NCBI GenBank assembly: GCA_964437445.1
Contig: CAYTGR010000013.1
Location: 17,786 to 81,785 of the forward strand
DNA length: 64,000 bases
Direction of reading: 5' to 3'
Origin: an uncultured Anaerolineales bacterium
GTDB taxonomy: Bacteria; Chloroflexota; Anaerolineae; B4-G1; SLSP01
Of this stretch, positions 12,129-35,802 are shown in pieces. The notes beneath the pieces were generated by a model. The model did not search any database, was not told where the DNA came from, and saw only the letters and a program-made list of their open reading frames with translations. Position 1 is the first letter of the stretch, and the number at the start of each line of letters is the position of its first letter. The position numbers and the translations under genes were made by a program.

Positions 12129-12818
12129 TCACTGCCGCAGTACCAGCGGCAGCAGCACTGTCGCCACAGTGTAGCCTACCCGGACGCCGCGAATCAGCTG
12201 CTGCGGGTCGAAATCATTCAGGGATGCCAGGATGACGTATTCATTCTGGTTGTTGTCAATGACCCAGGCCGGTGATATGACCAGGTTCCGGCTCAAGATC
12301 TCCGTGCTGGAAATGTTGGTGGTGGTGGTCAAAACCGTGACGATTGTAGTGGTATCCAGGGGAATCCGCACAAGGCCGAGCGTAAGGTTGGCTGAGGAGT
12401 TGTCGCGAAAGTAGAAGAGCAGTTCCTGGACCCGCGCCCCCTGGGGTAGTTGCAGCGGTATGGTCATCTCCGCGGGAAGGAGGGCGGTGGTCGTGAGCAG
12501 GGCTCGCCCACTGTAACCAAAGTTGTACACCAATTGATCCCGGCTATCGTAGGTCTGGAAAGCGAGGCCCGAAAAAGTACGGTACGCGAGACCCGGGGTG
12601 ACTGGTAGCGCCGCGGGACTGGCCGCTTCGTGAGGCCCGACCGGGCCGGGGAGGGAAAACGCGGAGGCCGTCGGTTCTTCCAGAACCGGGAGGGCCGGCG
12701 GCGTCACAACCACCTGGGCGCCGGTGCGGGCGGCGGCCGGCAGCCATCCCGGCCCCAGACTGAGGCCGAGGCCAACGGCGATCATGGCCATCAGGATCAC
12801 AAAGCGCGGGCGAGACAT
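12129..12818 (-). CDS. Secreted hypothetical protein ending in the LPLV tail
   Basis: Signal peptide MSRPRFVILMAMIAVGLGLSLG. C-terminus ...TVLLPLVLRQ. No recognised domain. Confidence 0.5.
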   Translation of the reverse strand: MSRPRFVILMAMIAVGLGLSLGPGWLPAAARTGAQVVVTPPALPVLEEPTASAFSLPGPVGPHEAASPAALPVTPGLAYRTFSGLAFQTYDSRDQLVYNFGYSGRALLTTTALLPAEMTIPLQLPQGARVQELLFYFRDNSSANLTLGLVRIPLDTTTIVTVLTTTTNISSTEILSRNLVISPAWVIDNNQNEYVILASLNDFDPQQLIRGVRVGYTVATVLLPLVLRQ

Positions 12819-13010
12819 AGGTACCTCCTTAAGTTTTAGCAGAAGTTTTTGATAAAAATAGTCAATGGCGGGCGTTCAGCGGTCCGGATTAGTGGCGCAT
12901 AAAGAAGCGCGGGGTGGATGGGTGAGTTTCTGAGTGCGGTGTGGGTGGGGTGACCGCTATAATCATTATAGGCACAGAGCCTCCTCACGTCAACGCCGAT
13001 GCTTGTCCCC

Positions 13011-13037
13011 TTGACCTTGAGGGGATGACTATATAAT
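13011..13037 (+). promoter_or_regulatory. Putative sigma70-type promoter TTGACC-N15-TATAAT, about 255 nt upstream of the Eis-like GNAT
   Basis: Hexamers read directly. The 15-nt spacer is short, so confidence is low. It would give a long 5' leader containing the family-B element. Confidence 0.3.
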
Positions 13038-13190
13038 TGAGGTGATGGGCGAAAATCGAACCCTCAATTAAGACGGCGAACCAAAGTTCGCGTCACGTTG
13101 GCTACTGACTGGGCAACTAAGTGACTGCTTGATTGTTTGCCTTCAGAGGAATTCCCCATGGCCTGGCGTTCACACCAGCCGGGGGGATGA

Positions 13191-13285
13191 AAATGTGAGC
13201 TGTGAGCGGTGAACAGGAAACAGGAACTTCTACCTCCTGCTCTCTGCTCACTCCTTAACTGGTTTCTATTTTCAAAGGAGCTATT
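13191..13285 (+). repeat. Family B conserved leader element, copy 1, ending 6 nt before the start codon
   Basis: AAATGTGAGC(TGTGAGC)GGTGAACAGGAAACAGGAAC..CCTGCTCTCTGCTCAC..CTTAACTGGTTTCTATTTTCAAAGGAG. Near-identical to 55227..55322. Internal imperfect hairpin; contains TGTGAGCGG. Confidence 0.65.
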
Positions 13286-13291
13286 ATTATT

Positions 13292-14554
13292 ATGATGAAC
13301 GACATTCGGTTGTTATCCGATCCGGGTATCGTAGCCTACGTAGATATCGTCATCAATGCTTATCCGGGGTTCAAAATCGCCTCGGAGGAGGACCGGCAGC
13401 ATCTCATTGACCGGCTGGTGGATGTGCAGGCCAATGTCCCAACGGTGCACCTGTACGGCCTCTACCGGGACAACCAATTGTTGGGCGGGATGCGCCTGCA
13501 CGATTTCTGCATGAATATGCTGGGGGTTGAAATCGGTGCCGGCGGCGTGGGCATGGTCGCCGTGGACCTGGTGCACAAGAAGGAGCACGTGGCCCGCGAA
13601 CTGATCGTTTATTTCTTGCAGCACTACCGGCAGCAGGGCGTTACGCTGGCTCTGCTCTATCCCTTCAGGCCCGATTTTTATTACAGGATGGGTTTCGGCT
13701 ATGGCCCTAAGATCAGCCAGTACCGTTTCCAGCCGGCGGGCCTGCACGGGAACGCTTCCAAGGCGCGCGTGCGCTTCCTGACTGCCGACGATAAGCCGGC
13801 CCTGATGGAGTGCTACGACCGCTATCAGGCCCAGACGCACGGCATGATCGTGCGGTACCCGCCGGAGTGGGAGGGCTGGTTCAGAAACCTGGGTCTGGAT
13901 AATCGCATCGCAGGTTACGGGCCGGCGGGCCGGTTGGAGGGCTACCTCATCTTCGGCTTCAAGGCCCGGCCGGTGGATAGCCCGCTGCGTAACGATCTCA
14001 TCGTCAAGGAATTCGTCTATACCAGCCCCGCCGCGCTGAGCGAGTTGCTGGCCTTTCTGCATTCCCAGGCCGACCAGATCGACCGGATTGTGCTGACCAC
14101 GCACGACGAGAACTTCCACCACCTATTGGTGGACCCGCGCAACGAGTGCGAGGCGCTCATCCCTTCAGTTTACCACGAGAGCAACGTCCAGGGGGTGGGG
14201 CTGATGTACCGGGTGATTGACGTACCGGGATTGTTTGCCGCCCTGGCTGGCCATAACTTCAATGGGCAGACCTGCCGGCTGCGGTTGACCGTGCGCGATT
14301 CGCTTTTCCCGATCAATGCCGGGAGCACACTGCTCTATTTTGAACAGGGCCGCGTCAGCCTGCCGGCGACCGGCCCGCACGATGTGGAGATCACGCTAGA
14401 TATCGCCGAGTTCTCATCGTTAGTGGTCGGTGCGGTGGATTTCAAGCACCTCTACACCTACAATCTGGTGGAGATTTCCGACCCGGCCTATCTGCCTGTC
14501 GTCAATGCTATCTTTGCCGTGCCGGAGAAACCGGTCTGCCTGACGGCGTTCTGA
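13292..14554 (+). CDS. Eis-like GNAT acetyltransferase (N-terminal GNAT plus C-terminal SCP2-like domain architecture)
   Basis: 420 aa. Length and layout match the Eis/Acetyltransf_9+17+SCP2 family. AGGAG RBS. Confidence 0.55.
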   Translation: MMNDIRLLSDPGIVAYVDIVINAYPGFKIASEEDRQHLIDRLVDVQANVPTVHLYGLYRDNQLLGGMRLHDFCMNMLGVEIGAGGVGMVAVDLVHKKEHVARELIVYFLQHYRQQGVTLALLYPFRPDFYYRMGFGYGPKISQYRFQPAGLHGNASKARVRFLTADDKPALMECYDRYQAQTHGMIVRYPPEWEGWFRNLGLDNRIAGYGPAGRLEGYLIFGFKARPVDSPLRNDLIVKEFVYTSPAALSELLAFLHSQADQIDRIVLTTHDENFHHLLVDPRNECEALIPSVYHESNVQGVGLMYRVIDVPGLFAALAGHNFNGQTCRLRLTVRDSLFPINAGSTLLYFEQGRVSLPATGPHDVEITLDIAEFSSLVVGAVDFKHLYTYNLVEISDPAYLPVVNAIFAVPEKPVCLTAF

Positions 14555-18639: not shown

Positions 18640-19800
18640 ATGGATATCAAAGGGGAACGCGGGCAAGCATTGTTTGTAGTATTGTTTGCCATGGTGGCCT
18701 TACTGGTCATTGTGGGCCTGGCGATTGATGGTGGGCAGTTATACAAGGCGCGGCGTGACGTTCAGACCGCGGCCGACGCCGCGGCCCTGGCCGGGACTCG
18801 CGAACTGTCCCAGGCTATCGTCACCTGTAGTGCCGGCGGCAGCGCCCAGGATCGCCTGGTCCGGGATGCGATTGTAGAGTATGCCGCGCTCAACGGCGTC
18901 ATTCACGACAATGTGAATGGCCGCATTTGGGCCTGGTACGTCGACAAAAATCAGGCTCGCTTGAGCAGCGTGGGGTTGGGAAGCGTGCCTAACGGGGCCA
19001 CCGGCGTGGAGGTTTCCATGGTTGTGACCCATCCGACGGCCTTCCTCCGGGTCGTGGGGCAGAATGATATTGTCGCCCCAGGCGAGGCGCTGGCGATGGC
19101 CGGGCGACTCACCCAGATGTCCGGGAATCTGATGCCGGTCGGCGTCCCGGACGAGGTGATTGGGCAGATCAATCCGAATGATACGCTCTGGATCTTTGAC
19201 GATGGGCGCTATTGCCGGGACAACGCGGGGAGCGAGTGTCTGGATACCGGAGACTCGGCGGCGTACCGTGGCTGGTTCAACTTTAACTACATCTACAACC
19301 TGGAGCACCTGCCTAAGGCGGATCCCCTATACCGGACGATTACCACCAGCCGCAGCAATGCTGATATCAAAAACTGGCTGCAAGGAATCGGGGTGCCGGT
19401 CATCCTCGCCGGCAACGTCGGCGCGACGAACGGTGATTACATCTACGGAGATACGGGTGAGCGCGCCGGCGCGATGGATGAGATTTACGATACCTATGAG
19501 GGAGAGACGATTTACTTCCCGGTCTATGATATGGTTTACTCGGGCGAGTACCTGGCCCAGTATCCCGGCATCTTCCAGGCCCCAGAAGGGGGATGGGCCA
19601 ATACCATCATCGGGAAAAAGAACGCCTTTATGTACCACATCGTCGGGTACGTGGCCGCCATTCCCACGGGGGTGTCTAAGGATAAGTTGCGCACCAGCTT
19701 TCAGACTTCCATTATTGGTGAGGGTCAGATTCAACCGGGTGACGGTCTGGGAACCTGTTCTAGTCGCATGTTGACCTATGCCGTGACCTTGTGGCGGTAG
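18640..19800 (+). CDS. TadG-like (Flp-pilus TadE/G-like N-terminal domain) protein with large C-terminal domain
   Basis: N-terminus GQALFVVLFAMVALLVIVGLAIDGGQLYKARRDVQTAADAAALAG is a pseudopilin-like hydrophobic segment plus Tad N-domain. TAGGAGGGG RBS. Confidence 0.6.
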   Translation: MDIKGERGQALFVVLFAMVALLVIVGLAIDGGQLYKARRDVQTAADAAALAGTRELSQAIVTCSAGGSAQDRLVRDAIVEYAALNGVIHDNVNGRIWAWYVDKNQARLSSVGLGSVPNGATGVEVSMVVTHPTAFLRVVGQNDIVAPGEALAMAGRLTQMSGNLMPVGVPDEVIGQINPNDTLWIFDDGRYCRDNAGSECLDTGDSAAYRGWFNFNYIYNLEHLPKADPLYRTITTSRSNADIKNWLQGIGVPVILAGNVGATNGDYIYGDTGERAGAMDEIYDTYEGETIYFPVYDMVYSGEYLAQYPGIFQAPEGGWANTIIGKKNAFMYHIVGYVAAIPTGVSKDKLRTSFQTSIIGEGQIQPGDGLGTCSSRMLTYAVTLWR

Positions 19801-19866
19801 GCCATTTCATCAAGGTCCTGAAGGGTTCTGATTTCAAAGTTAAGGATCAGCAGCAGGGGGTGGGGG

Positions 19867-21759
19867 ATGATAAAATCTGGCAGACACAACCGGGGGCAGG
19901 CACTGGTAGAATTTGCGTTGATACTGCCTCTTTTGCTGTTGATCATCTTTGGGATTATTGATTTTTCGCGCGCGTTTTTTGTCTACGTCAACCTGACCAA
20001 TGCCGCGCGCGAGGGCACCCGCTATGGACTGGTCAATCCGCGCGATTACACAGGGATTGATACTCACGCGCGCAGTACAGTTGACCTGGTGCCGGCTCCG
20101 TTGGTGACCGTCAATGTCTGGTATGATAAAGGTCCCGGCACGGCCACTTTTAGTAATCCCCAGTATGTGACCGTGGGGGATCGGGTCGTGGTGGAAATTG
20201 CTTACGATTTGGAGCCGGTGACACCGCTTATCCAACCCTTTGCCCCGGTTTTTCCGTTGCATACAGTGAATGCGCGCACCATTCAGACCTTGGGCACAGT
20301 CGTGAGCGACAATCCCAACCCGGCGCCGCCGAACGAGCCGCCTGGGGATGGAGCGACGCCGACCTCCACGCCCGGGGGTGGGCCAACCGCTACCGCCACG
20401 CCGGTTGCCCCGACGGCGACCGCGACGCCACGGCCGCCGACGGCCACGCCTACGCCGGTCCCCCTGCGCATTGTCCGGCCGCTGCTGCCGGGGAGTACCC
20501 AGGTGGGCGGGATTGGGCAGCCGGGGCAGATGGTGACGCTGCGCATTGTGCAAACCGGCTTCCAGCAGAGCGTGTTTGTAAATTCCAACGGACAGTTCTT
20601 GTTCACGGGCATTCCGCCTCTGGTGGCAGGGTACACCGTGATTGTGCAGGGCTATGGTCAACAGGACCTGGTTGTGGTGGAGACCGGAACGGCCACACCG
20701 ACGGCGACCCCGACTCCTCTCCCTTCTCCCACTCCCACCCCAAGCGGGGTGTTTATCGCCGTTACGCCCGGCTGTGCTCCGGTGGGCGCAACCCAAACGT
20801 TCCAGGTGACCGGATCTAACTGGCCGACCGGCAGCGCTCAAAAAAGGATCGCCATCTATTGGGATACGGTGGATAGTTCACCGGAAGCCCGGATCAGTGC
20901 CGCGGTGTCCTTCAATACCTCCATTCAGGTCAATGTGACGGCCGGCACGCATACCATCATAGCCCGGACGGAGGACAACCAGGGTAATTACACGGGAGGT
21001 GCTCAAGTCACTTTCCAGGTAACGGCTCCTTGCCCGGCCACCCCAACGCCAAGGCCCCAGGCGCGCCCCAACCTGATCATCAATGGGATGCTGTTGCGTG
21101 ATACGCCGCCGTTGGGCACCTACCAGAAGCTGCATCTGGAAGTGGGGATCTCTAACCAGGGGGCTCTCGACGCGGCCTCGCTGTTCTGGGTGGATTTGTT
21201 TGCTGATACACCTGCCGACCCCCTGGCTTTCAGCAGCGTGGATTATGTGGCAGTGGATGGCCTCCTGGCTGGCAGCACCCTTTCGTTTACCATGTATGTG
21301 CCCGACGGATTTGCTGCCACGGGGGTGCATACCCTGACGGCTATGGTGGACACCTGGGATCAGATCGCCGAGACCAGTGAACTGGATAACCTCAGCCGGG
21401 TTTACACGGTTACGATTGCGAGCGCTAACCCGACGCCCACGCCCACGCCGACGCCGGAGGTGACGCCGGGAGCCGGTGGCGCGATTGAGGGCACCACGTA
21501 CATGTACACCGACGGGTTGCGGCCGCAGAGCGGGGTCAGTGTCTACGTTTACGACGCGCAGGGTCGCCTTTATGGTTCTACCCGTTCGGATAACAACGGC
21601 GCGTATCATATCGGCGATTTGCCGCCCAACTCCACCGGCTATACCGTGCGCGCCGTCTTGCGGATTGGTGACCAGTTGTACGTGGATCAGGCCGTAGCGC
21701 CGGTCTATGCCGGGATGACTACCACCGGGGTTGACTTCACTTTTGTTCCTGCTAATTGA
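19867..21759 (+). CDS. TadE-like N-terminal domain fused to Pro/Thr linkers, Ig-like, CARDB-like and carboxypeptidase-regulatory-like domains (adhesin-like)
   Basis: N-terminus GQALVEFALILPLLLLIIFGIIDFSRAFFVYVNLTNAAREGTRYG is a TadE motif. Two PT-rich linkers. C-terminus SGVSVYVYDAQGRLYGSTRSDNNGAYHIGDL is a CarbopepD_reg-like beta-sandwich. Confidence 0.65.
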   Translation: MIKSGRHNRGQALVEFALILPLLLLIIFGIIDFSRAFFVYVNLTNAAREGTRYGLVNPRDYTGIDTHARSTVDLVPAPLVTVNVWYDKGPGTATFSNPQYVTVGDRVVVEIAYDLEPVTPLIQPFAPVFPLHTVNARTIQTLGTVVSDNPNPAPPNEPPGDGATPTSTPGGGPTATATPVAPTATATPRPPTATPTPVPLRIVRPLLPGSTQVGGIGQPGQMVTLRIVQTGFQQSVFVNSNGQFLFTGIPPLVAGYTVIVQGYGQQDLVVVETGTATPTATPTPLPSPTPTPSGVFIAVTPGCAPVGATQTFQVTGSNWPTGSAQKRIAIYWDTVDSSPEARISAAVSFNTSIQVNVTAGTHTIIARTEDNQGNYTGGAQVTFQVTAPCPATPTPRPQARPNLIINGMLLRDTPPLGTYQKLHLEVGISNQGALDAASLFWVDLFADTPADPLAFSSVDYVAVDGLLAGSTLSFTMYVPDGFAATGVHTLTAMVDTWDQIAETSELDNLSRVYTVTIASANPTPTPTPTPEVTPGAGGAIEGTTYMYTDGLRPQSGVSVYVYDAQGRLYGSTRSDNNGAYHIGDLPPNSTGYTVRAVLRIGDQLYVDQAVAPVYAGMTTTGVDFTFVPAN

Positions 21760-21774
21760 TCTGTAGAGGATGAG

Positions 21775-23034
21775 ATGCGACCACGTTATTGGGGTCTGGT
21801 TATCGGAATGGTGTTAGCTTTGGTGCCGGTCATCGTTGGGGCGGCGGCCTTAGCCGAATGGGTGGGGGCCGATCCGGCGTTCCAGCTGGTTGCCAACGGC
21901 GATGGACAACATGCCGACCTGGCGATCAGAACCGGGCAGACGGCAGTAGTCTGGGCCGGCCGCAGTACGCCGGGCATTTACCTGGGCACTGCGGGCGGGA
22001 GCAGCTGGACGACAACCACTCTGACGACGGCTGCCGAGGTCCATCATCCGGTCGTTGTTTATTCGGGTACCCGCTGGATTGCTGTGTGGGCGCAGGGCAT
22101 TCTTTCAGATGTGACGATTATGAGCCAGGATCAGGACGGCCTGGCGCAAGCTGTGGTTACGCATATGTTCGGTGAGGCCTTCCCGCAGCTCAAAAGTGGC
22201 CCTACCGGACAATATCTAACCTTTGCTGCCAGCACTTCTTACGCCGAACGCACGTTGACCGATCTCTATCTCAGCCACCGACCGCTGACGGCTACGGCCT
22301 GGGCTACCGCCATTGTAGTGACTCGTACGCAGGTGATCCCCGGTCAGACCGGCGGGGGCGTATGGAACCCCCGCCTGGCACTCAGCCCGGATGGACTGAC
22401 TCTGCACCTGGTCTGGCAGCAGACAGTGGGCATCACCCGCACGGTCTGGTATCTCTCCGGTACCTGGACTCCAGGCGGTGTCATGTGGGGATCGCCGCAA
22501 CAGGTCTCGCCACCCGATCAGAGTGTAGCGGTGTTGCCGGATGTGGCCGCGACGGCGGACCAGGTGTATGTCACCTGGACTGAAGTGGCGGGGGGGGTGG
22601 CCTATTCCAATACCCAGTATATCAACCTGTGGCAGCTGGGAAAGCCGGCTGTCCGGGTCTCCCCTGATTTCTATGTCAACAACGTCCAACCTACCTGGGC
22701 AGCCTCAACGCTGGATGCGCAGGGGCAGCAGGTCTGCTTCACCTGGCACGCTAATGCCCCTGGCCTTCCCTCCGGGGAGGGAAAAGAGGAAGTCTGGCTG
22801 CGGTGTTCCAAAGATGGCGGAGCGACCTGGATGGAGATGGTAAATGTCTCCGAGAGCCCGGCCACTTATTCTTTGAATCCCAGAGTGGAGCTGGACGCCA
22901 GCGGGCGGGTAGCGCTGGTCTGGACCGAAGTGGCCATGGATCAGGAACAGCGGAAATTTTATGATGTTTATTACCGCAGCGGCCCGGCACAAATGTTGCA
23001 TGTCTACTTGCCCCTGGTATTGCGGAGATCTTGA
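21775..23034 (+). CDS. Secreted BNR-repeat (sialidase-like beta-propeller) protein ending in the LPLV tail
   Basis: N-terminal signal/anchor. One canonical BNR motif SKDGGATW plus degenerate copies. C-terminus ...HVYLPLVLRRS. Confidence 0.5.
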   Translation: MRPRYWGLVIGMVLALVPVIVGAAALAEWVGADPAFQLVANGDGQHADLAIRTGQTAVVWAGRSTPGIYLGTAGGSSWTTTTLTTAAEVHHPVVVYSGTRWIAVWAQGILSDVTIMSQDQDGLAQAVVTHMFGEAFPQLKSGPTGQYLTFAASTSYAERTLTDLYLSHRPLTATAWATAIVVTRTQVIPGQTGGGVWNPRLALSPDGLTLHLVWQQTVGITRTVWYLSGTWTPGGVMWGSPQQVSPPDQSVAVLPDVAATADQVYVTWTEVAGGVAYSNTQYINLWQLGKPAVRVSPDFYVNNVQPTWAASTLDAQGQQVCFTWHANAPGLPSGEGKEEVWLRCSKDGGATWMEMVNVSESPATYSLNPRVELDASGRVALVWTEVAMDQEQRKFYDVYYRSGPAQMLHVYLPLVLRRS

Positions 23035-23642
23035 CCATGCGCGCTATAAAGGGGTTGGCTTTATTGCTGGGGGGGCTGGTGGTCCTGCTGGTTCTGCTGG
23101 TCGCAGGCTGGCAGGGCCGGCGCTGGTTGACCACGGCGTTCCCGGAGCCTACCCTGGCCTGGAGCGGGCTAAGCGCTCCCGTGGCGTTGTCGGATGCCGC
23201 CGGGCGTAGCGCGGAGCGGGCGACGGCCTGGGCCGCGGATGCTGTTCTGGTGGAGGTAGAGGGGGCCTGGCGTCCGGCCCCGGACTGGATCCAGGTGGAG
23301 ACGCCGCCGCTGGCCTGGACGTTTTATTACTACTCTGCCATCCAGCGGTCAGTCGCGGCGGTGACGGTACAGGGAGATTCTCTGCTCTGGTCTCCCCCTC
23401 TGGAAGTCACAGTCGCGCCGGAGGTGTTGTCCACCTTCCCGCCCGTGTACGGCGCTAACGTGGCCTGGCTCTCTCTGCGGGCCGCCGGTGGCGATCAACT
23501 GTTGCAGGAAGATGGCGAAACTACCGTGCGGCTGACGTTGCATCAGGTTGAGGGCACACCCCTCTGGGAAGCTGTAGCATTTCGGGAGGGACAATTTTTG
23601 CAGGTACGATTAGATGCTCAGACCGGCCAGGTTGTCCCCTAA
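23031..23642 (+). CDS. Membrane-anchored hypothetical protein (type II topology), translationally coupled (ATGA) to the BNR gene
   Basis: N-terminal TM LALLLGGLVVLLVLLVAGW. Remainder extracytoplasmic with no known motif. Confidence 0.45.
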   Translation: MTMRAIKGLALLLGGLVVLLVLLVAGWQGRRWLTTAFPEPTLAWSGLSAPVALSDAAGRSAERATAWAADAVLVEVEGAWRPAPDWIQVETPPLAWTFYYYSAIQRSVAAVTVQGDSLLWSPPLEVTVAPEVLSTFPPVYGANVAWLSLRAAGGDQLLQEDGETTVRLTLHQVEGTPLWEAVAFREGQFLQVRLDAQTGQVVP

Positions 23643-23745
23643 GGGCGGCGCGTAGTTACGCCAATCCTGAGCTATGCTCAGGCCAGGCCTTGCTGACACG
23701 GCCAGCGGGTGGCCTCAAGGCCGTTCAGAGCTGACTTTTTAGGAG

Positions 23746-23997: not shown

Positions 23998-24417
23998 ATG
24001 TTTAAAATTGCCCAGCGCCGTGAACAGGGACAGAGTCTGGTGGAATTTGCACTTTTGTTGCCGTTGTTGCTGATTTTGTTGTTGGGAGTGCTTGACCTGG
24101 GGCGTGTTTTTTACGTTTTGGTAGCCTTGAAAGACGCTGCCGACGAAGGAGCTACCTACGCTGCCATCCGACCATCGGATACCCAGGGAATTCAATTGCG
24201 AACTGCGGATGCTTCTGGCTCATTAGTGACCATTGATCCGGCCCAGGTGACGGTGGTGCGGCCGGCGACGGTAGTCCCCGGTGCTCCGATCACGGTGACG
24301 GTTGAGCACTCTTTTGAATTCTTCAACCCCTTCATTGCCCCGGTGCTTACCAGCGCTGCGAACAACAGTATGGTCCTGCATACCAATTCCACTCATCCCA
24401 TTATTTCAGTGCGGTGA
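23998..24417 (+). CDS. TadE-like protein (minor pseudopilin-like), stand-alone
   Basis: N-terminus GQSLVEFALLLPLLLILLLGVLDLGRVFYVLVALKDAADEGATYA is a TadE family signature. 139 aa. Confidence 0.7.
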   Translation: MFKIAQRREQGQSLVEFALLLPLLLILLLGVLDLGRVFYVLVALKDAADEGATYAAIRPSDTQGIQLRTADASGSLVTIDPAQVTVVRPATVVPGAPITVTVEHSFEFFNPFIAPVLTSAANNSMVLHTNSTHPIISVR

Positions 24418-24823: not shown

Positions 24824-27286
24824 ATGCACTTGCACCGTTCCCGCATCGTGTGCGCCCTGGTGGGGCTGGCGCTCCTCGGCGCGTTCTGGCTGTCCGGCGT
24901 CCGGCCGGGCTCCGGGCCGGTCCAGATCGCTCGCGCTCAGACCACCGGCGTCACGCCCACCGGCCTCCAGGACTATGAGCGCTGGGTGGGCTCGCTGCAT
25001 TCCCACGTCGGCATGGACGGTGACGATGGCGCGAATGGCTCCACCGCCGCGCAGGCCTTCGCCTACGCCCGCAACCTGCCCCATCTCCAGTATTTCGCCG
25101 TCAGCCCCCACCTGCACGCTTCCCGCAGCGGCGACGCCACCCTCTGGTATGAAAACACCTACGATACCCTCCGGGCGCAGGCGGCCGGCGCTACTACCGC
25201 CGACTTTGTGGCCGTGGCCGGGGTGGAGGTCGGTACAATCTCCAAAGGCGGCCACTGGAATCTCTTCAATGCCCAGGACCTGGTGGGACAGGATCATCCC
25301 GACGGTGACTGGAACGACGCCGATGACTACTACGATCATCTTGCCGGGCTGGGGGCTGCCAGGGAGCTGGTCGCGGCGCAATTCAACCATCCCAACACCA
25401 CTGACTTTGGCAACCGCTACGACGCCAATGCCGCGCCCTACGTTGGCACGCTCGCCGTCTCCAGCGGGCCGGCCTTCTCTGCTGCTACCGATTTCGGCGA
25501 CAGTGGCAGCAATTACGAATCGGTCTGGGCGCATTTCCTGAGTCTGGGCTGGAAACTGGCCCCGGCGGCCGATCAGGACAATCACAACGCCACATGGGGC
25601 GCCTCGTCCAGTGAGTACACCGTCATCGTGCGGCCCAAAGGGACGGCGTTGACGCCGGCCAACGTCGTGCAGGGGCTGCGGGAGCACATGACCTACGCCA
25701 CCGAGGATGCCAACCTGCAATTAGGCTTCATCGCCAACGGTTGGAGCATGGGGCAGACGATCGGCGGCAGCCCAAACGTGGCCTTCGTCGTCTGGTGGAA
25801 CAATCCCTCGGCTACGATTTACAATCTCAACAACAATACGGCCCGCGCTGAGGCCGCCAGTGACGCCATTCAGAATATCTGGCTCTACAAAAACGGCTTT
25901 AGCACGCCGGTAGCGAGCTACCAGCCGCGGACGGTAAGCGGGGCGTGGGCAGTTACCGTCACCGCCACGGCGGGGGACTGGTTCGTGGTCAAATTCCAGG
26001 ACAGCAGTACATTAGCGACCACTGGCCGGACAACCGACCTGGCCTGGTCGGCCCCGGTCTGGTACGATCCGGCGCACGCCGACGTACCGCTGACCGTCAA
26101 CGGGGCTGCCCCCGTGCCGGTGGCCGGGGTCGCCCTGAGCGGGCCGCTCAGCGGGACCGTGGGGGCGACTTCAGCCTTTACCGCCACAGTTACGCCGTTC
26201 TCGGCAACGTTGCCCATCACTTACGTCTGGGAGGCAGTTGGACAGGCTCCGCTCACCCACACCGGCGGCTTGAGCGATACGGCAATGTTGGCCTGGGGTA
26301 TGCCGGGGACCTACCCGGTGACGGTCACCGCGCGCAACGCGGCCGCCAGCGTCCAGGCCAGCCAGATTATGGTGGTCGTAGCACCTCCGGCCTCCACCGC
26401 CGTCGCTGTTGAGGGTGTCGCTCTGAGCGGGCCGCTCAGCGGGACCGTGGGGGCGACTTCAGCCTTTACCGCCACAGTTACGCCGTTCTCGGCAACGTTG
26501 CCCATCACTTACGTCTGGGAGGCAGTTGGACAGGCTCCGCTCACCCACACCGGCGGCTTGAGCGATACGGCAATGTTGGCCTGGGGTATGCCGGGGACCT
26601 ACCCGGTGACGGTCACCGCGCGCAACGCGGCCGCCAGCGTCCAGGCCAGCCAGATTATGGTGGTCGTAGCACCTCCGGCCTCCACCGCCGTCGCTGTTGA
26701 GGGTGTTGCCCTGAGCGGGCCGCTCAGCGGGACCGTGGGAAGCATGGCGACCTTCACGGCCACGGTCACGCCGCTTTCAGCGACGTTGCCTATCACCTAT
26801 GTCTGGGCGGTGACCGGGCAGCCGCCAATCACCTGCACCAACGAGGGGTTGACCAGCACCGTCACGTTCCCCTGGCTGCTGGCCAGGACCCAGGAGGTCA
26901 CCGTGACCGCGGTCAATATCCAGGGGAGCGCTACCGCGACACAACCGGTTTCAGTGACGGAGCCGGTGGCCGGGGTGGCCGTAGCCGGGATGTGGCTCAG
27001 CGGTCCCGGCCAGGTGCTGGTCGGAACCGGGGCCACGTTCACTGCCACGGTCACGCCGCCCGACGCAACCGTGCCGCTCACGTACACCTGGCAGGCCACC
27101 GGGCAACTGCCGGTCACGCACACGCACGCGCAACTGAGTGACACCGTCGCCTGGACGTGGGACACCCCTGGTATCCAGACGTTCACCGTGACCGTCCAGA
27201 ATATCGGCGGGCCGGTGGTCCAGGTCGCCGCCGTGACCGTGACCGCGCACACGCTCTATGTGCCGCTGGTCCTGGCGCAGTGGTAG
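24824..27286 (+). CDS. Secreted PHP-domain (CehA/McbA-like metallo-phosphoesterase) protein with four PKD/Ig-like repeats and the LPLV tail
   Basis: Signal peptide. PHP motifs LHSHVGMDGDDG and PHLHAS. Four ~96-aa repeats (..SGPLSGTVGATSAFTATVTP..PITYVW..). C-terminus ...HTLYVPLVLAQW. Start at 24824 (AGGAGG RBS). Confidence 0.65.
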   Translation: MHLHRSRIVCALVGLALLGAFWLSGVRPGSGPVQIARAQTTGVTPTGLQDYERWVGSLHSHVGMDGDDGANGSTAAQAFAYARNLPHLQYFAVSPHLHASRSGDATLWYENTYDTLRAQAAGATTADFVAVAGVEVGTISKGGHWNLFNAQDLVGQDHPDGDWNDADDYYDHLAGLGAARELVAAQFNHPNTTDFGNRYDANAAPYVGTLAVSSGPAFSAATDFGDSGSNYESVWAHFLSLGWKLAPAADQDNHNATWGASSSEYTVIVRPKGTALTPANVVQGLREHMTYATEDANLQLGFIANGWSMGQTIGGSPNVAFVVWWNNPSATIYNLNNNTARAEAASDAIQNIWLYKNGFSTPVASYQPRTVSGAWAVTVTATAGDWFVVKFQDSSTLATTGRTTDLAWSAPVWYDPAHADVPLTVNGAAPVPVAGVALSGPLSGTVGATSAFTATVTPFSATLPITYVWEAVGQAPLTHTGGLSDTAMLAWGMPGTYPVTVTARNAAASVQASQIMVVVAPPASTAVAVEGVALSGPLSGTVGATSAFTATVTPFSATLPITYVWEAVGQAPLTHTGGLSDTAMLAWGMPGTYPVTVTARNAAASVQASQIMVVVAPPASTAVAVEGVALSGPLSGTVGSMATFTATVTPLSATLPITYVWAVTGQPPITCTNEGLTSTVTFPWLLARTQEVTVTAVNIQGSATATQPVSVTEPVAGVAVAGMWLSGPGQVLVGTGATFTATVTPPDATVPLTYTWQATGQLPVTHTHAQLSDTVAWTWDTPGIQTFTVTVQNIGGPVVQVAAVTVTAHTLYVPLVLAQW
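26129..26704 (+). repeat. Two perfect 288-bp tandem copies encoding PKD-like repeats 1 and 2, with more diverged copies downstream
   Basis: The 288-nt block from 26129 is repeated base-for-base from 26417. A third copy from about 26705 and a fourth near 27000 are diverged. In frame (96 aa). Confidence 0.85.
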
Positions 27287-29779: not shown

Positions 29780-31699
29780 TCAGGGTCGCTGCCCGCCGGG
29801 AAGACCTGGGTTGCCGCCTGGCCGGCCAGGGCCGCCCTCCACAGCCGAGCCGGCACTGGTGACCATGCTGGAAATCGTAAAACTGGTAATCTGAGTGCCG
29901 GCGGTATAGGTTCCACCAGAATATAGACCGTCGGTCACTGTACCGGTTGAACTTCCACCAGTGTAGACCAGATAGGTTGTCCCATTCTTGAGTTCAGGTG
30001 AGCACAACACGACTGACTGGTACACTTTGGTCGGTACAAAGGTCAGAATGCCCTCGCCATCTTGAGTTTCAATGTGGACCGGCGTCCCGGCAGCCTGCTG
30101 GCTGGCGAAATTATACAGCACTGAATACTGCGTGGAGGAAGCACTGGGGGCTTGGGCCATGCCGGCGCTGCCCGCAGCCACCAGAAGACCGCCGGTGACC
30201 TTAAACTCGCCGGTATAATCCAGGGGACCGTTCCCGTTGTCGGTGGGCCCGTTGACGATCACCGTCCCGCCGGTCATGGCAATGGGACCGTTGGCGTCAA
30301 TCCCGTCGCCGCCAGCATCAATGACGATGTAGCCTCCGTTGAGGTAAAGTGGATAGTTGCCGGCCGCCATGAAGTCGTTTTGCCCCGGGCGCTCGTTGAC
30401 TGAAGAGCCATCCACGCCGCCGGCGGTGTTGATCCCATCGTCGCTGGCCAGCAGGTGGATCTCCCCGCCATTGATCGTAATCATGGCGCTTTCAATCCCC
30501 TCATAGGATTGGGTAATGTTCAGCTGGCCGCCGCTGATAGTCAGGGTAGCATCGGAATGGAGGCCGTCATCGCCGGAGGTTAGCAGCAGTTCCCCGCCGC
30601 TTAGCGTTAAACTGCCGTTGGAATGGATCGCGTCATCTGCGGAATCAATGGTGATCATACCACCGGTAATGGCAATATCCACGCCGGCCTTCAGCCCTTT
30701 GGCACTGGCCGTAGTATCCGCGTCGCTGGCGCTGCTTTCCATGCCTTGATTGCCCCAGCCAGCTTGATGACTGACGCCGTTGCTGCTGCCGCCACCCGAG
30801 ACGAGGGCAAGAGTGCCGCTGCTGACCACCAGCCTGGTCGCGGCCTGCACCGCGTCCAGCCCGGCCGTGATGTTCAAAGTGCCGCCCTCAATGACAATGT
30901 ACCCCTTTTCAGCATCGTCCGTATTGTTGGCTTGCAGCCCGTCGCCCCCCGCGTTGACCGTGATTGTTCCGGCTTTGACCGCAATGGAGTCCCGGCCCTT
31001 GATACCATCGTTGGTGGCGTTGATGATGAGCGTGCCGCCGGTAATTTTCAGATCGTCTTTGCTGACAATGCCGTGGTTATAGGTGGCGTTGACGGTGAGT
31101 GCACCGTTGCCGTTAAAAGTGAGGTCATCATGGCTGAAAATCGCCGCATTGGGCTCATCTGATTCCGCGCTCTCCAAGCGATAAGCGCTCCCGTCGGCGA
31201 CATAGTTTTCAGTCCCGGCGGCCAGGGTGATGACCGTCTTCTCCGCATTGGCTACGTAAATAGGCGCGCTGGTGGAGCAGGTGATGTTCGCTCCATTCAG
31301 CACAAGCCTGACGGTTTCTTTGTCCTCTGTATTGACGACAATCTGCCCGTCATTCAAGACGCCGCTGAGGCTGTACCGGCCGGCCTTCGTGATGGTGACG
31401 ACCGTGCCGTTCACCGTGACGCCGTCCCCCTCAACGGTGACGGTATTGCCCTCCAACTTGATGTAGGACATACCGGAACTGTTGGTACTGGTATCCAGGT
31501 CCTCGCTTTCGTATTCTACGGTAATGGGGGCGTACACTACCGCCGCGTCCTGTTCCGTCTCGCCCGCGGGATTGGCTACGGTTCCGGCCTGGCCGGTCGC
31601 CGCCGCCAAAGTCCCCGCGCTGCCAACGGCAGCACCGGAACAAGCGGTGAAGGTCAAGATAAGAACGAAGAGCAATCCTAATGCTATGATTTTTTTCAT
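29780..31699 (-). CDS. Secreted lipoprotein with right-handed beta-helix repeats, Cthe_2159-like carbohydrate-binding family
   Basis: Lipobox signal MKKIIALGLLFVLILTFTACSG. Many ~22-aa repeats (G.DGI..NG.L.I.GG.L). C-terminal Gly/Pro-rich tail. Confidence 0.5.
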   Translation of the reverse strand: MKKIIALGLLFVLILTFTACSGAAVGSAGTLAAATGQAGTVANPAGETEQDAAVVYAPITVEYESEDLDTSTNSSGMSYIKLEGNTVTVEGDGVTVNGTVVTITKAGRYSLSGVLNDGQIVVNTEDKETVRLVLNGANITCSTSAPIYVANAEKTVITLAAGTENYVADGSAYRLESAESDEPNAAIFSHDDLTFNGNGALTVNATYNHGIVSKDDLKITGGTLIINATNDGIKGRDSIAVKAGTITVNAGGDGLQANNTDDAEKGYIVIEGGTLNITAGLDAVQAATRLVVSSGTLALVSGGGSSNGVSHQAGWGNQGMESSASDADTTASAKGLKAGVDIAITGGMITIDSADDAIHSNGSLTLSGGELLLTSGDDGLHSDATLTISGGQLNITQSYEGIESAMITINGGEIHLLASDDGINTAGGVDGSSVNERPGQNDFMAAGNYPLYLNGGYIVIDAGGDGIDANGPIAMTGGTVIVNGPTDNGNGPLDYTGEFKVTGGLLVAAGSAGMAQAPSASSTQYSVLYNFASQQAAGTPVHIETQDGEGILTFVPTKVYQSVVLCSPELKNGTTYLVYTGGSSTGTVTDGLYSGGTYTAGTQITSFTISSMVTSAGSAVEGGPGRPGGNPGLPGGQRP

Positions 31700-33227: not shown

Positions 33228-33509
33228 AGCTCTACTTTCCTTAATTTCCTTATTTCCTTTTTTCCTTAGCCTTCAGAATTTCCCGTACCTCCAAACTTTA
33301 TGTGCAGTTTACAACATTGATCTGAGAGCAAACCAAGAAAGAGCTGAGAGATAACTTAGAGTCCAGCTAAAAATTTTCCTGACGTGTGCTCTGTGGGCTT
33401 GCCCTACCGTCAGAGGAAAGCCAAAGCGGATCCAACCGGCGCTAAGGTAAATGCCTGATCCAGGACTGGCAGAAGTGACCTGAAAGTTGAAACGCATCTT
33501 GATTTTTGC

Positions 33510-33538
33510 TTGACAAGCCGTACAGCAACCCTATACTG
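33510..33538 (+). promoter_or_regulatory. Sigma70 promoter TTGACA-N17-TATACT for the 33571 gene
   Basis: Consensus -35, 17-nt spacer, -10 TATACT, about 30 nt upstream of the start. Confidence 0.55.
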
Positions 33539-33570
33539 GACCTCAGTAACTCATTTGAGGGAGATCACAC

Positions 33571-35802
33571 ATGGCGCTCCACAAACCCTGTTTACTCCTC
33601 GTGGCCTTGCTGTGCCTGTTGCCGGGCCTCAAGGCCGTGCCTTCGCCCCAGCCGGCGCTGGCGGTGCAGGAGATTTATACCGACGCGCTGGCAGCGGGGT
33701 GGAGCAATTGGTCCTGGGCCACAGTGAATTTGCAGGCCACCGCGCCGGTCCACTCGGGCAGCCGCAGCATTGCCGTGACCTGTAGCGCCTGGCAGGGACT
33801 TTATTTGCATTACCCTGAACTTGCCACGGCCGGCTTTACACATTTACGCTTTTTCATCCATGGCGGCAGCGCCGGTGGCCAGCAGCTCCACGTGTACGCG
33901 ACCTATCCGGTCAACGGCTCCGACCAGAATGGGCCGGCGGTCGCTGTGTCGCCGCCGGCGGCCAATACCTGGAGCGAAGTGCGCATTGCCCTCGCCGACC
34001 TGGGGGTGGCGAACGTCGCGCTGACCGGCCTGATCTGGCAGAATACGACCGGCGGCGCGCAGCCTACGTTTTACGTGGACGATATCGCCCTGGTGGCGGA
34101 CGAAAGCCCCGACGGTCCCACCCTGAGCGCCGGCTACCTGCGGCCGCGCGCGGTGCCCGCCGATGGGGGGACGCAAACCGTGGTCCGCGTCCGGGTCGGT
34201 GATCCCCAGGGCCTGTCTGACATCGCCAGCGTGACGTTGGACGGCAGCGCGCTGGGCCGGGGCGCGATCCCCTTGCGCGACGACGGCTGGAGCAACGACG
34301 GCGCGACGGGCGATGGTGTGTACGGGGCCGTGTTCACGGTCGCGCCGGGCACGGCCAGCGGCGAGCCCCAGCTGCTTGTCACCGCGCAAGACCAGGCCGG
34401 ACATCGCGCCAGTTTGCAATTGGGCGCGCTGGCCGTGCTGGCCTCGGCGGGCGGCCGGATTCCCTCGGCGTTGCCGCAGCGCCTGGGCTGGGGCTCCAAC
34501 GCCTGGAGTGAGACGCCCGGCCAGGACTGGCAGGTCAATAGCGGCGTCCCCTGGAACTACGTTTACCAGTACATCACCTACGACTGGTACGTGAACGGTT
34601 GGGGCGGCAACTTTGTCGGGCGCTTTGTGAACCAGGCCTGGAACAAGGGCTACGTCCCGCTGATATCGGTTTACATGATCCTGGAAGTGCCGCCCAACTG
34701 TGGCGAGAGCGCCACCTGTTACGCCGCCAAGTTGCAGAACTCCCAGACGGTGAGCACTTATCTGGCCGCACTGCAGGAAGCGGCCCGGCAGGCCCAGGGC
34801 CCGCATCCCGTCATCTTTCACCTGGAGCCTGATTTTTACGGCTACATGCAGCAATTGAGCAACAGCGCCGAGCGCCCGGCCGGCGTCCAGCCCGACGATC
34901 CCAGCTCCTACCCCGTGGCGTTGAACGTGGCCGGCTATCCCAACACCCTGGCCGGATTCGGGCGGCGCATGGTGGATCTGATCCACGCTACCGCGCCCAA
35001 TGCGCTGGTCGCGCCGGCCGCGAGCATGTGGGCGACCAACGGCGACCCGAACTCGGTTCCCGTCGCGCAAGTGACCAGCATGGGGCAACGCACGGCGGCC
35101 TTCCTGGAAGCGATGGGCGGGGCGCAGGCGGACCTGCTGGTGGTAGAGTGGAGCGACCGCGACGCGGGTAGCGGCCTGCGTCCCTGGTGGGACGATACGA
35201 ACCTCACCCTGCCGCGCCCCACACGGGCGATCTTGTGGGAGAATGCGCTCTCGGTCGCGGCGCACAAGCGGCTGATCTTGTGGCAAATGCCCGTCGGCAA
35301 CATGGCGTTGGATAACACCTGCGACCATTATCGCGATAACCGTGCGGCTTACGTGTTCCAGCACCCCCGTGATTTGGTGGATGCCGGGGTCTTGGCCGTG
35401 CTGTTCGGCGGCGGGGCCGAGTGCCAGACGCAGGTGACGACCGACGGCGGATTTGTCGCCGCGCAAGGCGCGATCGCGTATGCCCGCCCGCTGACGCCAA
35501 CAGGGCTTGCAGCGGGCCCGGTGGTCGGACCGCTGGTGCCTGTGCGCTGGGATGAGAACACCGAGCCGGACCTGTGGGGCTATCGGGTCAGCCAGCAACG
35601 GGCGCAGGGGGGAGCAGCTCTTGCCGTTGATGCCGGCCGGAAGAACGCGCGGATGCTTTTGCTTCCGCAGGCCGGCGACTGGCGCGTCAGCGTGGCGGCT
35701 TACGACGCCATGGGGCAGCTGGGGCCGGCCTCGGCCGTCATTACCGTCACAACCACTATCAACGCCCAACAGGTTTTCCTGCCCCTCGTTCAACGCCATT
35801 AG
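33571..35802 (+). CDS. Secreted multidomain protein: N-terminal CBM-like, Ig-like, central putative glycoside-hydrolase-like barrel, C-terminal Fn3-like; ends in the LPLV tail
   Basis: Signal peptide MALHKPCLLLVALLCLLPGLKA. Central region rich in W/Y (GWGSNAWSE..WNYVYQYITYDWYVNGWGGNF). C-terminus ...QQVFLPLVQRH. Enzyme family not identified. Confidence 0.4.
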   Translation: MALHKPCLLLVALLCLLPGLKAVPSPQPALAVQEIYTDALAAGWSNWSWATVNLQATAPVHSGSRSIAVTCSAWQGLYLHYPELATAGFTHLRFFIHGGSAGGQQLHVYATYPVNGSDQNGPAVAVSPPAANTWSEVRIALADLGVANVALTGLIWQNTTGGAQPTFYVDDIALVADESPDGPTLSAGYLRPRAVPADGGTQTVVRVRVGDPQGLSDIASVTLDGSALGRGAIPLRDDGWSNDGATGDGVYGAVFTVAPGTASGEPQLLVTAQDQAGHRASLQLGALAVLASAGGRIPSALPQRLGWGSNAWSETPGQDWQVNSGVPWNYVYQYITYDWYVNGWGGNFVGRFVNQAWNKGYVPLISVYMILEVPPNCGESATCYAAKLQNSQTVSTYLAALQEAARQAQGPHPVIFHLEPDFYGYMQQLSNSAERPAGVQPDDPSSYPVALNVAGYPNTLAGFGRRMVDLIHATAPNALVAPAASMWATNGDPNSVPVAQVTSMGQRTAAFLEAMGGAQADLLVVEWSDRDAGSGLRPWWDDTNLTLPRPTRAILWENALSVAAHKRLILWQMPVGNMALDNTCDHYRDNRAAYVFQHPRDLVDAGVLAVLFGGGAECQTQVTTDGGFVAAQGAIAYARPLTPTGLAAGPVVGPLVPVRWDENTEPDLWGYRVSQQRAQGGAALAVDAGRKNARMLLLPQAGDWRVSVAAYDAMGQLGPASAVITVTTTINAQQVFLPLVQRH

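Follow-up and report, generated by a model that had tools for sequence, protein, structure and literature searches.

YLP-box tails on four exported proteins of an Anaerolineales bacterium, members of a catalogued putative sorting motif of Chloroflexota

Background

Tripartite C-terminal sorting signals consist of a short motif followed by a transmembrane (TM) helix and a cluster of arginines (bioRxiv 10.1101/2023.06.07.544157). A tag of Chloroflexota is already described as a putative sorting motif in NCBIfam release 20, where two models of only 10-11 positions, NF050076 (sort_motif_YLP) and NF053834 (ultrashort_CTERM), are both titled 'YLP-box putative sorting motif-containing protein'; literature and structure searches yielded no paper, solved structure, partner or experiment on the YLP-box. 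To our knowledge, every bacterial C-terminal sorting signal characterised by experiment relies on a segment that spans the membrane and on a dedicated endopeptidase, a way in which the YLP-box cannot work, and we know of no characterised bacterial system that sorts by an uncleaved, receptor-bound peptide. In eukaryotes, a binding protein recognises the KDEL/HDEL, PTS1 (-SKL) and PTS2 signals and leaves them uncut. A leaving group of only 2-3 residues suffices for soluble transpeptidases of the asparaginyl-endopeptidase ligase type (clan CD, C13), such as butelase (N|HV).

Sludge, sediments and soils harbour abundant Chloroflexota, a phylum with a poorly understood cell envelope: the gene content is that of a monoderm, yet the envelope is multilayered (PMC13319060). 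Here we describe a window, the whole analysed stretch of 64,000 nucleotides of an uncultured Anaerolineales bacterium, in which four unrelated secreted proteins had been proposed to share an undescribed C-terminal sorting or anchoring tag.

Results and discussion

Four carriers in the window

All four open reading frames (ORFs) were verified, with the ends originally predicted, and all have signal-peptide-like, non-lipoprotein N-termini (here and below, signal peptides were called by a crude rule of hydropathy instead of a trained predictor). Carrier 1 (12129..12818, minus strand) is an exported protein of 229 aa without a fold assignment, ending in ..TVLLPLVLRQ; it had no Pfam or NCBIfam match, its AF2 model from the single sequence was uninformative, and its box (12132..12155, minus strand) is the variant LLPLVLRQ, which has no aromatic residue at box position 1. 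Carrier 2 (21775..23034, plus strand), whose gene sits within a TadG/TadE pseudopilin gene cluster, is an exported, sialidase/BNR-like protein of 419 aa ending in ..HVYLPLVLRRS, with the canonical box YLPLVLRRS at 23005..23031 (plus strand). Carrier 3 (24824..27286, plus strand) is an exported protein of 820 aa that has four PKD-type repeats besides a catalytic-like region at its N-terminus (PKD match at 1.7e-12 in the domain scan); it ends in ..HTLYVPLVLAQW, and its box (27257..27283, plus strand) is the variant YVPLVLAQW, in which Ala replaces the basic residue.

Carrier 4 (33571..35802, plus strand) is a modular, glycoside-hydrolase-like exported enzyme of 743 aa (CBM, Ig, GH-like barrel and FN3) ending in ..QQVFLPLVQRH. 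Its Foldseek matches are CBM8/CBM11, mannanase-type barrels and FN3, and a choice_anch_X domain scored 26.2 bits (cutoff 25). In its AF2 model (pLDDT 93, pTM 0.91), the last strand, at residues 724-728, belongs to a confidently folded FN3 domain. The box FLPLVQRH (35776..35799, plus strand) lies beyond it and is predicted to be disordered, without packing onto the fold: residues 736-743 form no secondary structure and have a pLDDT of less than 50. The modelled box is thereby shown to protrude as an unstructured peptide.

Two of the four tails, those of carriers 2 and 4, are matched by the NCBIfam models, the curated cutoffs of which are 10 bits (NF053834) and 15 bits (NF050076). Carrier 4 scored 12.2 bits at full length and 16.6 bits as an isolated tail with NF053834, and 16.2 bits as an isolated tail with NF050076, which did not report the full-length protein. 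The isolated tail of carrier 2 scored 13.2 bits with NF053834 and 13.7 bits, just below the cutoff, with NF050076; the full-length protein was reported by neither model (in the case of NF053834, owing to the HMMER filters). Both models describe the same peptide and match it at the very end of carriers 2 and 4 and of further carriers in other Chloroflexota. They are, however, annotation models with the word 'putative', and the tails of carriers 1 and 3 lie below their detection, with no match to either model at E<=10 for tails or full-length proteins. We file these two as divergent instances, because they have the same register and position and a signal peptide, and because equally degenerate tails occur among the orthologues of carrier 4. 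Operationally, the YLP-box may be defined by a signal peptide, a box within ~10 residues of the stop and a Chloroflexota host, a combination present in all four carriers. A sorting or anchoring tag is the most reasonable reading of these tails, and is that of the NCBI curators themselves, but the tag is not undescribed; since the motif is already catalogued, the window adds members and is not a discovery.

Conservation at the peptide level

The core [LIVFYM][LV]PL[VI] occurs five times in the 47 gene-like ORFs (19,220 aa) of the window, against 1.1 occurrences expected. Within the last 12 residues it was observed four times against 0.022 expected (Poisson P ~9e-9, from the composition of the window), which bears out the common end of four unrelated proteins. 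The codons of the four tails differ synonymously, including CTN and TTR for Leu, and therefore conservation is at the peptide level and not at the DNA level, as had been proposed. Among the tails of related loci, both CGN and AGR are used for Arg.

A codon-fixed DNA pattern for YLPLVLR, which includes no stop codon, was scanned over 185,579 species genomes. Of 50 Chloroflexota-titled loci, 41 have the heptapeptide at 0-7 residues from the stop, as do just two of 30 non-Chloroflexota loci, both in ORFs of less than 35 aa (Fisher P ~2e-11); outside Chloroflexota it is internal to conserved enzymes of other phyla. C-terminal placement of the box is found in Chloroflexota only, and the box-bearing taxa are Anaerolineae, Thermoflexia, Caldilineales and related metagenome-assembled genomes.

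A motif so short, built from common residues, might have no function and reflect chance similarity, a DNA element that gene ends share, or a C-terminal domain common to the carriers, of which it would be the last strand. This reading is refuted, and has practically no chance of being correct: in addition to the window statistics, the synonymous codon variation and the stop-free scan, conservation does not extend upstream of about position -3, the tail is unpacked in the AF2 model, and it is kept in orthologues at 37-50% identity.

Consensus, position and retention of the box

The consensus of the carrier tails is [RKHY]-[RKHY]-[VIL]-[YF]-L-P-L-V-[LVI]-[RK]-[N/x]-x, usually followed by the stop; Pro is invariant, L/L/V exceed 90%, Y/F is fixed and the basic residue is strongly preferred. 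L-P-L-V is followed by 3-4 residues in the window and by 2-9 in 59 carriers, with at least two residues always present after P-L-V. The basic residue is followed by 0-4 residues and no TM helix, 12 of the 59 tails stopping exactly at Arg/Lys, and the final residue (Q, S, W and H in the window) is variable elsewhere. The box was originally placed at the extreme C-terminus, which is correct for about 80% of the copies, but the other ~20% lie just after the signal peptide (10-20 residues past it) or between domains, beside Pro/Thr linkers. Because such internal copies exist, a free carboxylate is not needed. The N-proximal copies score 9.5 bits at most, or are undetected, with the NCBIfam models. 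In one homologue (P0031), the box is followed by a TM helix and KRRM.

Homologues of carrier 1 with 79-98% identity keep [LM]LPLVLRQ, and a 37%-identical homologue of carrier 2 (P0002) ends in IYLPLVLRTS. All 13 C-terminally complete orthologues of carrier 4 (~38-70% identity) keep [YFM]-x-P-x-x-x-[RKH], degenerate tails such as LYAPMARR and IFIPFAVR included. The tail is thus not lost from the orthologues of related genomes, being retained down to ~37-40% identity.

This retention bears on the idea that the box is itself a physical anchor, a seven-residue hydrophobic core with basic flanks that would dip into the outer leaflet of the cytoplasmic membrane or a hydrophobic envelope layer without any protein partner. 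The core is indeed bracketed by R/K/H at -3/-2 and +6, boxes are found at either terminus or in linkers, and no partner gene was recognized in 47 loci. However, the conservation is far above what lipid insertion needs, a stretch of seven residues with Pro in the middle would hold only weakly to a membrane, and the orthologues drift yet keep the aromatic-x-P-x-x-x-basic register, a pattern that suggests, at the level of sequence, a shaped binding site. We consider direct anchoring improbable.

Proteins that carry the box

A signal-peptide-like N-terminus without a further TM segment was recognized in 31 of 41 carriers and 15 of 93 neighbours (OR 16, P = 5e-11, in loci selected by the motif). 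The predicted enrichment on signal-peptide proteins was also seen in an independent 816-kb sample, in which five of 48 signal-peptide proteins and two of 408 others have the box (P = 2e-4); in the sampled contigs, about 10% of signal-peptide proteins carry it. The domains of the tagged proteins are unrelated, as expected: 72 Pfam families were found among 56 carriers, including beta-helix adhesin-like, PKD, CARDB, S8, C25 and M14 peptidase, GH5 and nuclease families. The 'choice-of-anchor Q' domain is present in 14 carriers, and we take the names choice-of-anchor Q and choice-of-anchor X to reflect co-occurrence with different sorting signals. These analyses show that the box is under peptide-level selection, tied to signal-peptide proteins of dozens of unrelated families and conserved in their orthologues.

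Every exported soluble protein in the window has either a lipobox or a YLP-box. Lipoproteins with a lipobox Cys are encoded at 5816-7024, 7064-8182, 29780-31699, 55239-57071 and 60433-61107, and the N-terminally membrane-anchored exported proteins are a C11 peptidase, a TadG-like protein, a TadE-like protein and a 203-aa ORF; the tail therefore marks a subset of the secretome, as had been noticed. Members of the Cthe_2159 family are either a box-less lipoprotein (29780-31699 in the window) or have a plain signal peptide and a box (locus L125). The boxed P0002 weakly resembles the lipoprotein family NF053835, and an SBP_bac_5 ABC-transporter binding protein (locus L108) has the tail and no lipobox. 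In a monoderm, an ABC-transporter binding protein must remain at the membrane. The alternation has exceptions, since the independent sample includes some secreted proteins that appear to be free, and its best reading is that the box is an alternative to the lipoprotein anchor.

The box could instead serve folding or export, not localisation, as a site for an extracytoplasmic chaperone or a prolyl isomerase (acting on the Leu-Pro bond) or as a late-translocation signal. The invariant Leu-Pro in a hydrophobic context, the placement at chain ends and domain boundaries, and the mostly large, beta-rich and repeat-containing cargo would all fit. However, small, non-repeat proteins also carry the box (the 229-aa carrier 1 and the substrate-binding protein), and the way in which boxes and lipoprotein anchors alternate favours a role in localisation, so that we hold such a handle to be a poor prospect.

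The C11 peptidase and the question of cleavage

The membrane-anchored C11 peptidase, encoded 285 bp from carrier 1, had been proposed as a processing enzyme. More generally, an extracytoplasmic endopeptidase or transpeptidase might recognise the box, cut within it (for example, LPLV|LR, likened to LPXT|G) or after the Arg, and attach the protein covalently to an acceptor in the wall or envelope, the very short leaving group recalling that of asparaginyl-endopeptidase ligases. Such an enzyme might belong to clan CD, like the C11 protein of the window or the C25 peptidases that make up three of the 56 carriers. Cleavage after Arg is known from clostripain and Arg-gingipain. The near-invariant L-P-L-V with its following residues would also suit an enzyme recognition or cleavage site, and the strong basic preference is also in keeping with processing. 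The C11 orthologues form a well-conserved family of 381 relatives, and every carrier near one of them is at most three genes away.

However, a carrier is present in only five of 80 C11 orthologue loci, the adjacency is not significant (two of 125 immediate neighbours and two of 374 others are carriers; P = 0.26), and no C11 homologue occurs in the 47 other carrier loci, in which no non-carrier gene family recurs beside the carriers. The 12 tails that end at Arg/Lys leave no bond for an Arg-specific enzyme and, on their sequences, argue against obligatory cleavage after Arg; where the box is 10-20 residues past the signal peptide, just a stub would stay attached. There is also no TM segment to hold the substrate at a membrane enzyme. 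The proposed role of the C11 peptidase is thus not upheld, and we judge enzymatic processing of any kind rather unlikely, although it deserves more weight than direct anchoring or a folding handle.

Proposed function

The best explanation overall, which we think has about an even chance of being right, is that the YLP-box, a short linear motif of Sec-exported non-lipoproteins of Chloroflexota, is an exposed peptide that is read in trans. An envelope component would read it, and exported proteins would thereby be retained or sorted at the surface of the filaments, which have no outer membrane, the box taking the place of an N-terminal lipid or transmembrane anchor. Such a mechanism would require no cleavage after Arg and, unlike classical C-terminal sorting signals, no segment that spans the membrane. 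Binding is preferred to C-terminal processing because boxes are also N-proximal or inter-domain and because tails may end at the basic residue. More tentatively, and with somewhat less than an even chance, this may be a mechanistically new, TM-independent retention pathway, in which a disordered peptide of 8-11 residues, at either end or in linkers, is bound uncleaved by a dedicated envelope receptor or scaffold. If so, receptor-based retention would tether about one-tenth of the signal-peptide proteins to the multilayered envelope.

The tag, found on hydrolases, proteases, binding proteins and adhesin-like proteins, probably sets which enzymes stay on the filament surface. The mechanism is narrowed by the N-proximal and internal copies, the Arg-ending tails, the predicted disorder, the alternation with the lipobox and the lack of a genomically linked enzyme, and these added observations make the YLP-box question experimentally approachable.

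Comparison with known sorting systems

The tails had been said to differ from LPXTG, PEP-CTERM, GlyGly-CTERM and the T9SS C-terminal domain (CTD), and this holds: there is neither a TM helix nor a folded domain of ~80 aa, and apart from the YLP-box models no NCBIfam sorting-domain model matches them. The outer-membrane protein beta-signal, in which a terminal aromatic residue closes a beta-barrel, was rejected because the last residue of the tails varies, in the window as elsewhere, and because the carriers, multi-domain enzymes and adhesin-like proteins, are soluble.

The systems LPXTG/sortase, PEP-CTERM/exosortase, PGF-CTERM/archaeosortase, GlyGly-CTERM/rhombosortase and MYXO-CTERM/myxosortase resemble the box in being short motifs near the C-terminus of unrelated signal-peptide proteins. 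They have the same position on 'choice-of-anchor' domains, and L-P-L-V loosely recalls L-P-x-T. However, the few residues that follow L-P-L-V rule out a tripartite signal, and the box also occurs in N-proximal and internal positions and has no linked sorting enzyme. A sortase substrate was likewise rejected, as LPLV[LVI][RK] lacks Thr-Gly and no sortase lies beside the carriers in 47 loci.

The T9SS CTD, also a C-terminal tag on diverse secreted proteins, is removed by PorU, a C25 enzyme of clan CD. This situation is different from that of the YLP-box: in diderm Bacteroidota the CTD folds into a beta-sandwich of ~80 aa, and the YLP-box tag is ~8-14 disordered residues. T9SS cargo was rejected because the fold of carrier 4 ends before its disordered tail and Pfam/NCBIfam scans gave no CTD family; the C25/PorU-like matches in the carrier loci are box carriers themselves. 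The asparaginyl-endopeptidase ligases belong to the same clan CD as the enzyme originally proposed, but the box has no conserved Asn/Asp at P1, Arg-ending tails have no leaving group, and the only clan CD enzyme nearby, C11, is not consistently linked to the box. KDEL/HDEL, PTS1 and the N-terminal PTS2 act in another domain of life and in other compartments, show no sequence similarity to the YLP-box, which also has internal copies. What the box shares with these signals is that a few residues at the chain end mark unrelated cargo.

Four C-terminal tails in the window

Four exported proteins of the window end in a short peptide around L-P-L-V, with the coordinates and endings originally predicted: carrier 1 (12129-12818, minus strand) in ..TVLLPLVLRQ, carrier 2 (21775-23034) in ..HVYLPLVLRRS, carrier 3 (24824-27286) in ..LYVPLVLAQW and carrier 4 (33571-35802) in ..QVFLPLVQRH. 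Across 19,220 residues in 47 gene-like ORFs of the window, the core [LIVFYM][LV]PL[VI] was observed five times (1.1 expected by composition), and four of these copies lie in the last 12 residues, where 0.022 were expected (Poisson P about 9e-9), an excess that rules out a chance explanation. The codons vary among the four tails, and the codons used in 23 further tails of other genomes include CTN and TTR for Leu and CGN and AGR for Arg. Selection therefore acts on the peptide, as had been proposed, and a shared DNA element is ruled out.

The original prediction took the tail for an undescribed sorting tag. The proposed sorting role is identical to the label already given by the NCBI curators; the novelty is not upheld. 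Isolated tails match, at a permissive E-value, the NCBIfam models NF050076.1 sort_motif_YLP (11 positions, cutoff 15 bits) and NF053834.1 ultrashort_CTERM (10 positions, cutoff 10 bits). Both carry the description 'YLP-box putative sorting motif-containing protein', and the tag is thus the YLP-box and not new. Carrier 4 exceeds the cutoff of NF053834 even at full length (12.2 bits), and its isolated tail exceeds both; that of carrier 2 scores 13.2 bits on NF053834, above the cutoff, and 13.7 bits on NF050076, narrowly below. Because neither model matches the tails of carriers 1 and 3, these are treated as divergent instances, and carriers 2 and 4 as clear members. Box-like strings also end a lipoprotein sugar-binding protein (5816-7024, minus strand; ..AAPQPLVLPGPPQ) and a cytoplasmic AraC-family regulator (49104-50033; ..VAVPLVRG); both are probably due to chance, since the YLP models match neither protein. 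Literature searches by the peptide, the name 'YLP-box' and Chloroflexi sorting returned nothing relevant, and the box is absent from Haft's 2023 survey of sorting signals (preprint, bioRxiv 10.1101/2023.06.07.544157), so that knowledge of it appears to stop at the database label.

Carrier 2 lies inside a pseudopilin cluster (18640-24417) of TadG-like (386 aa), TadE-like (630 aa, with CARDB and Ig domains) and TadE (139 aa) proteins, together with a 203-aa membrane-anchored ORF whose start overlaps the stop of carrier 2. A CHASE4 histidine kinase and a response regulator precede the cluster, carrier 3 comes after it, and all six contigs recovered share this gene order. Two PKD-type repeats of carrier 3, each about 96 aa long (VEGVALSGPLSGTVGATSAF...PPASTAVA), are identical, which looks like a very recent internal duplication.

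Distribution and consensus of the YLP-box

A codon-fixed DNA pattern for Y-L-P-L-V-L-R, written without a stop codon, was searched in one genome per species (185,579 species), and the next stop was then located. Among the 80 loci listed with titles, 50 belong to Chloroflexota (Anaerolineae, Anaerolineales, Thermoflexia, Caldilineales and 'Chloroflexia/Chloroflexota' MAGs), and in 41 of these 50 the stop lies 0-7 residues past the Arg, versus two of the 30 non-Chloroflexota loci, both in ORFs of <35 residues (Fisher P about 2e-11). Outside Chloroflexota, the heptapeptide is internal to conserved enzymes, for example in the aminotransferase motif DEVVLFQPLYDAYLPLVLRAGGVP. The tails of the window thus turn out to exemplify a phylum-wide feature of Chloroflexota. 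About 20 more tailed ORFs that fall outside the codon pattern (FLPLILR, YLPLVVKG and YLPVVLRNGD, for example) were found in the same loci, which shows that carriers lie clustered in the genome. Aligned, 59 tails give the profile [RYHK]-[RKYH]-[VIL]-[YF]-L-P-L-V-[LVI]-[RK]-[N..]-x-stop, with the Pro invariant; the stop follows the basic residue directly in 12 tails and after one, two and three residues in 6, 25 and 11, respectively. A profile search with the tail alignment in a set of 5.8 billion proteins collected 88 short candidates, gave nine weak matches and is unusable as a census.

Cargo, conservation and structure

Signal peptides were assigned by a crude hydropathy rule. Of the 41 complete carriers in loci selected by the motif, 31 begin with a signal-peptide-like stretch and lack any further transmembrane segment, versus 15 of 93 neighbours (odds ratio 16, P = 5e-11). 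In an independent sample of 816 kb, picked via the C11 peptidase and not via the motif, the tail occurs on 5 of 48 signal-peptide-like proteins versus 2 of 408 others (P = 2e-4), both of the latter being false positives of the loose regex; the enrichment test called for in the original prediction, applied here to a sample in place of a whole proteome, is thus positive. The cargo is modular: 56 carriers scanned matched 72 Pfam families, including right-handed beta-helix, DUF11, CARDB, PKD, peptidases C25, S8 and M14, GH5 cellulase, ExeM/NucH nuclease, beta-propellers and ABC-transporter binding proteins. The Peptidase_C25 (PorU/gingipain-like) proteins of four Chloroflexota loci (L023, L029, L106 and L112) themselves end in a YLP-box, although a type IX secretion system is not expected in this phylum.

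The tail is kept in the homologues of carriers 1, 2 and 4, and a loss that would have spoken against a sorting tag was not seen. [LM]LPLVLRQ is retained in all three carrier 1 homologues, and a carrier 2 homologue of 37% identity ends in IYLPLVLRTS. Carrier 4 has 13 orthologues with a complete C-terminus (about 38-70% identity), every one of which has a recognisable though degenerate box, with VYLPLILR, VYLPLLLK, LYLPAIQR, IFIPFAVR, LYAPMARR and LMLPMVVH among their endings.

AlphaFold2, run on carrier 4 with a 46-sequence alignment (mean pLDDT 93, pTM 0.91), gave a CBM, an Ig domain, a glycoside-hydrolase-type barrel and an FN3 domain. The final strand of the fold is 724-728, and since the box (736-743) has pLDDT <50 and no secondary structure, the tail of carrier 4 is predicted to be a free peptide and not the closing strand of a common domain. 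An alignment of all carriers showed no conservation upstream of position -3, and this, with the unpacked tail of carrier 4, rules out a shared terminal domain. That the box is a handle for folding or export seems very unlikely. The carrier 1 model, made without an alignment, is uninformative (pLDDT 42), and a PDB profile search with the box gave chance matches to triose-phosphate isomerase only, no PDB chain containing the box.

Alternation with other anchors

Of the exported soluble proteins of the window, five have a lipobox Cys and the other four have the box; all remaining exported proteins are N-terminally membrane-anchored. The Cthe_2159 family includes a box-less lipoprotein (29780-31699) and, in locus L125 of another genome, a boxed protein that is not a lipoprotein; an SBP_bac_5 binding protein likewise has the box and no lipobox. 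A 'choice-of-anchor Q' domain is present in 14 carriers, and 'choice-of-anchor X' in carrier 4. The box thus alternates with other anchors, although not absolutely, as the independent 816-kb sample showed. That the box itself acts directly as a hydrophobic anchor seems very unlikely. P0002, a homologue of carrier 2, weakly matches NF053835 'PDIAV motif-containing lipoprotein' (32.5 bits, cutoff 90), the accession of which adjoins that of the ultrashort_CTERM model, and this hints that carrier 2 relatives with a lipoprotein anchor in place of the box may exist.

Box position

The extreme C-terminal placement originally described holds for most copies and fails for about one-fifth of the Chloroflexota copies, which are N-proximal or interdomain. 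In L119:239-2164, L123:1986-4064 and L123:4054-5502, boxes lie 10-20 residues past the signal peptide and so are N-terminal in the mature protein; these proteins are phospholipase-D-like, beta-propeller-like and DNRLRE-domain proteins, and the two L123 genes are adjacent. Interdomain boxes, found in L038 (two copies), L045, L097, L020 and L011, typically precede D/N-[YF]-x-P-P and Pro/Thr linkers. A signal placed at either terminus fits binding more readily than it fits C-terminal transpeptidation.

In L125, from a strain 98% identical to the organism of the window, an extra 965-aa gene (10935-13829, minus strand) forms a 2.9-kb insertion between the C11 peptidase and carrier 1, corresponding to 11922-12049 of the window. 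It encodes two tandem fused Cthe_2159 modules, the first ending in VIYLPLVLRTS and a long Pro/Thr linker and the second without a box, which shows how fusion can give rise to internal boxes.

The C11 peptidase

The gene at 9403-11844 encodes a genuine Peptidase_C11 that is anchored in the membrane and carries a large C-terminal extension, and its orthologue family is strongly conserved (381 metagenome relatives, 52-77% identity over the full length; loci L125-L204). Its proposed role as the processing enzyme of the tail found no support. No C11 homologue was found in 47 other carrier loci, only five of 80 C11 loci have a carrier, and carriers make up 2 of 125 immediate C11 neighbours versus 2 of 374 other genes (not significant, P = 0.26). 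All carriers seen near a C11 gene are within three genes of it, and a weak association may exist. A C11 enzyme of the clostripain type would be expected to cleave after Arg; since the basic residue is the very last one in 12 of the 59 tails, such cleavage cannot be obligatory. C11 was thus rejected as a consistent partner on 80 orthologue loci, and its function does not appear to be tied to the YLP-box. A signal processed by some enzyme, with an ultrashort leaving group, is the leading rival reading; we consider it unlikely, and the box is presumably not cleaved. Searches for another linked gene gave no candidate: in tblastn searches of the carrier loci, 17 proteins of the window matched only PKD, CARDB and response-regulator domains, and all-against-all clustering of neighbours in 47 loci revealed no recurrent non-carrier family beside carriers.

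Comparison with known systems

Classical sorting signals are tripartite, with a motif, a transmembrane helix and an Arg cluster (bioRxiv 10.1101/2023.06.07.544157). Unlike these, the YLP-box has neither a transmembrane segment nor an Arg cluster after it, so that the usual arrangement, in which the membrane keeps the substrate within reach of an intramembrane or membrane-anchored endopeptidase, is not available to the carrier. The end of P0031, a carrier 4 homologue of 1089 aa (IYMPLVVK, 12 residues, PEGG, a hydrophobic helix and KRRM), looks like a YLP-like box followed by a classical tripartite signal. The most likely mechanism, which we favour with moderate confidence, is that the box of an exported protein is an exposed peptide read in trans by a component of the envelope; such reading would lead to retention or docking, in place of a lipid or transmembrane anchor. 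As an analogy for peptide reading, and not as evidence, the YLP-box resembles the docking peptide D-I-P-x-F-L-R-K/N at the C-terminus of the cytoplasmic protein FtsZ.
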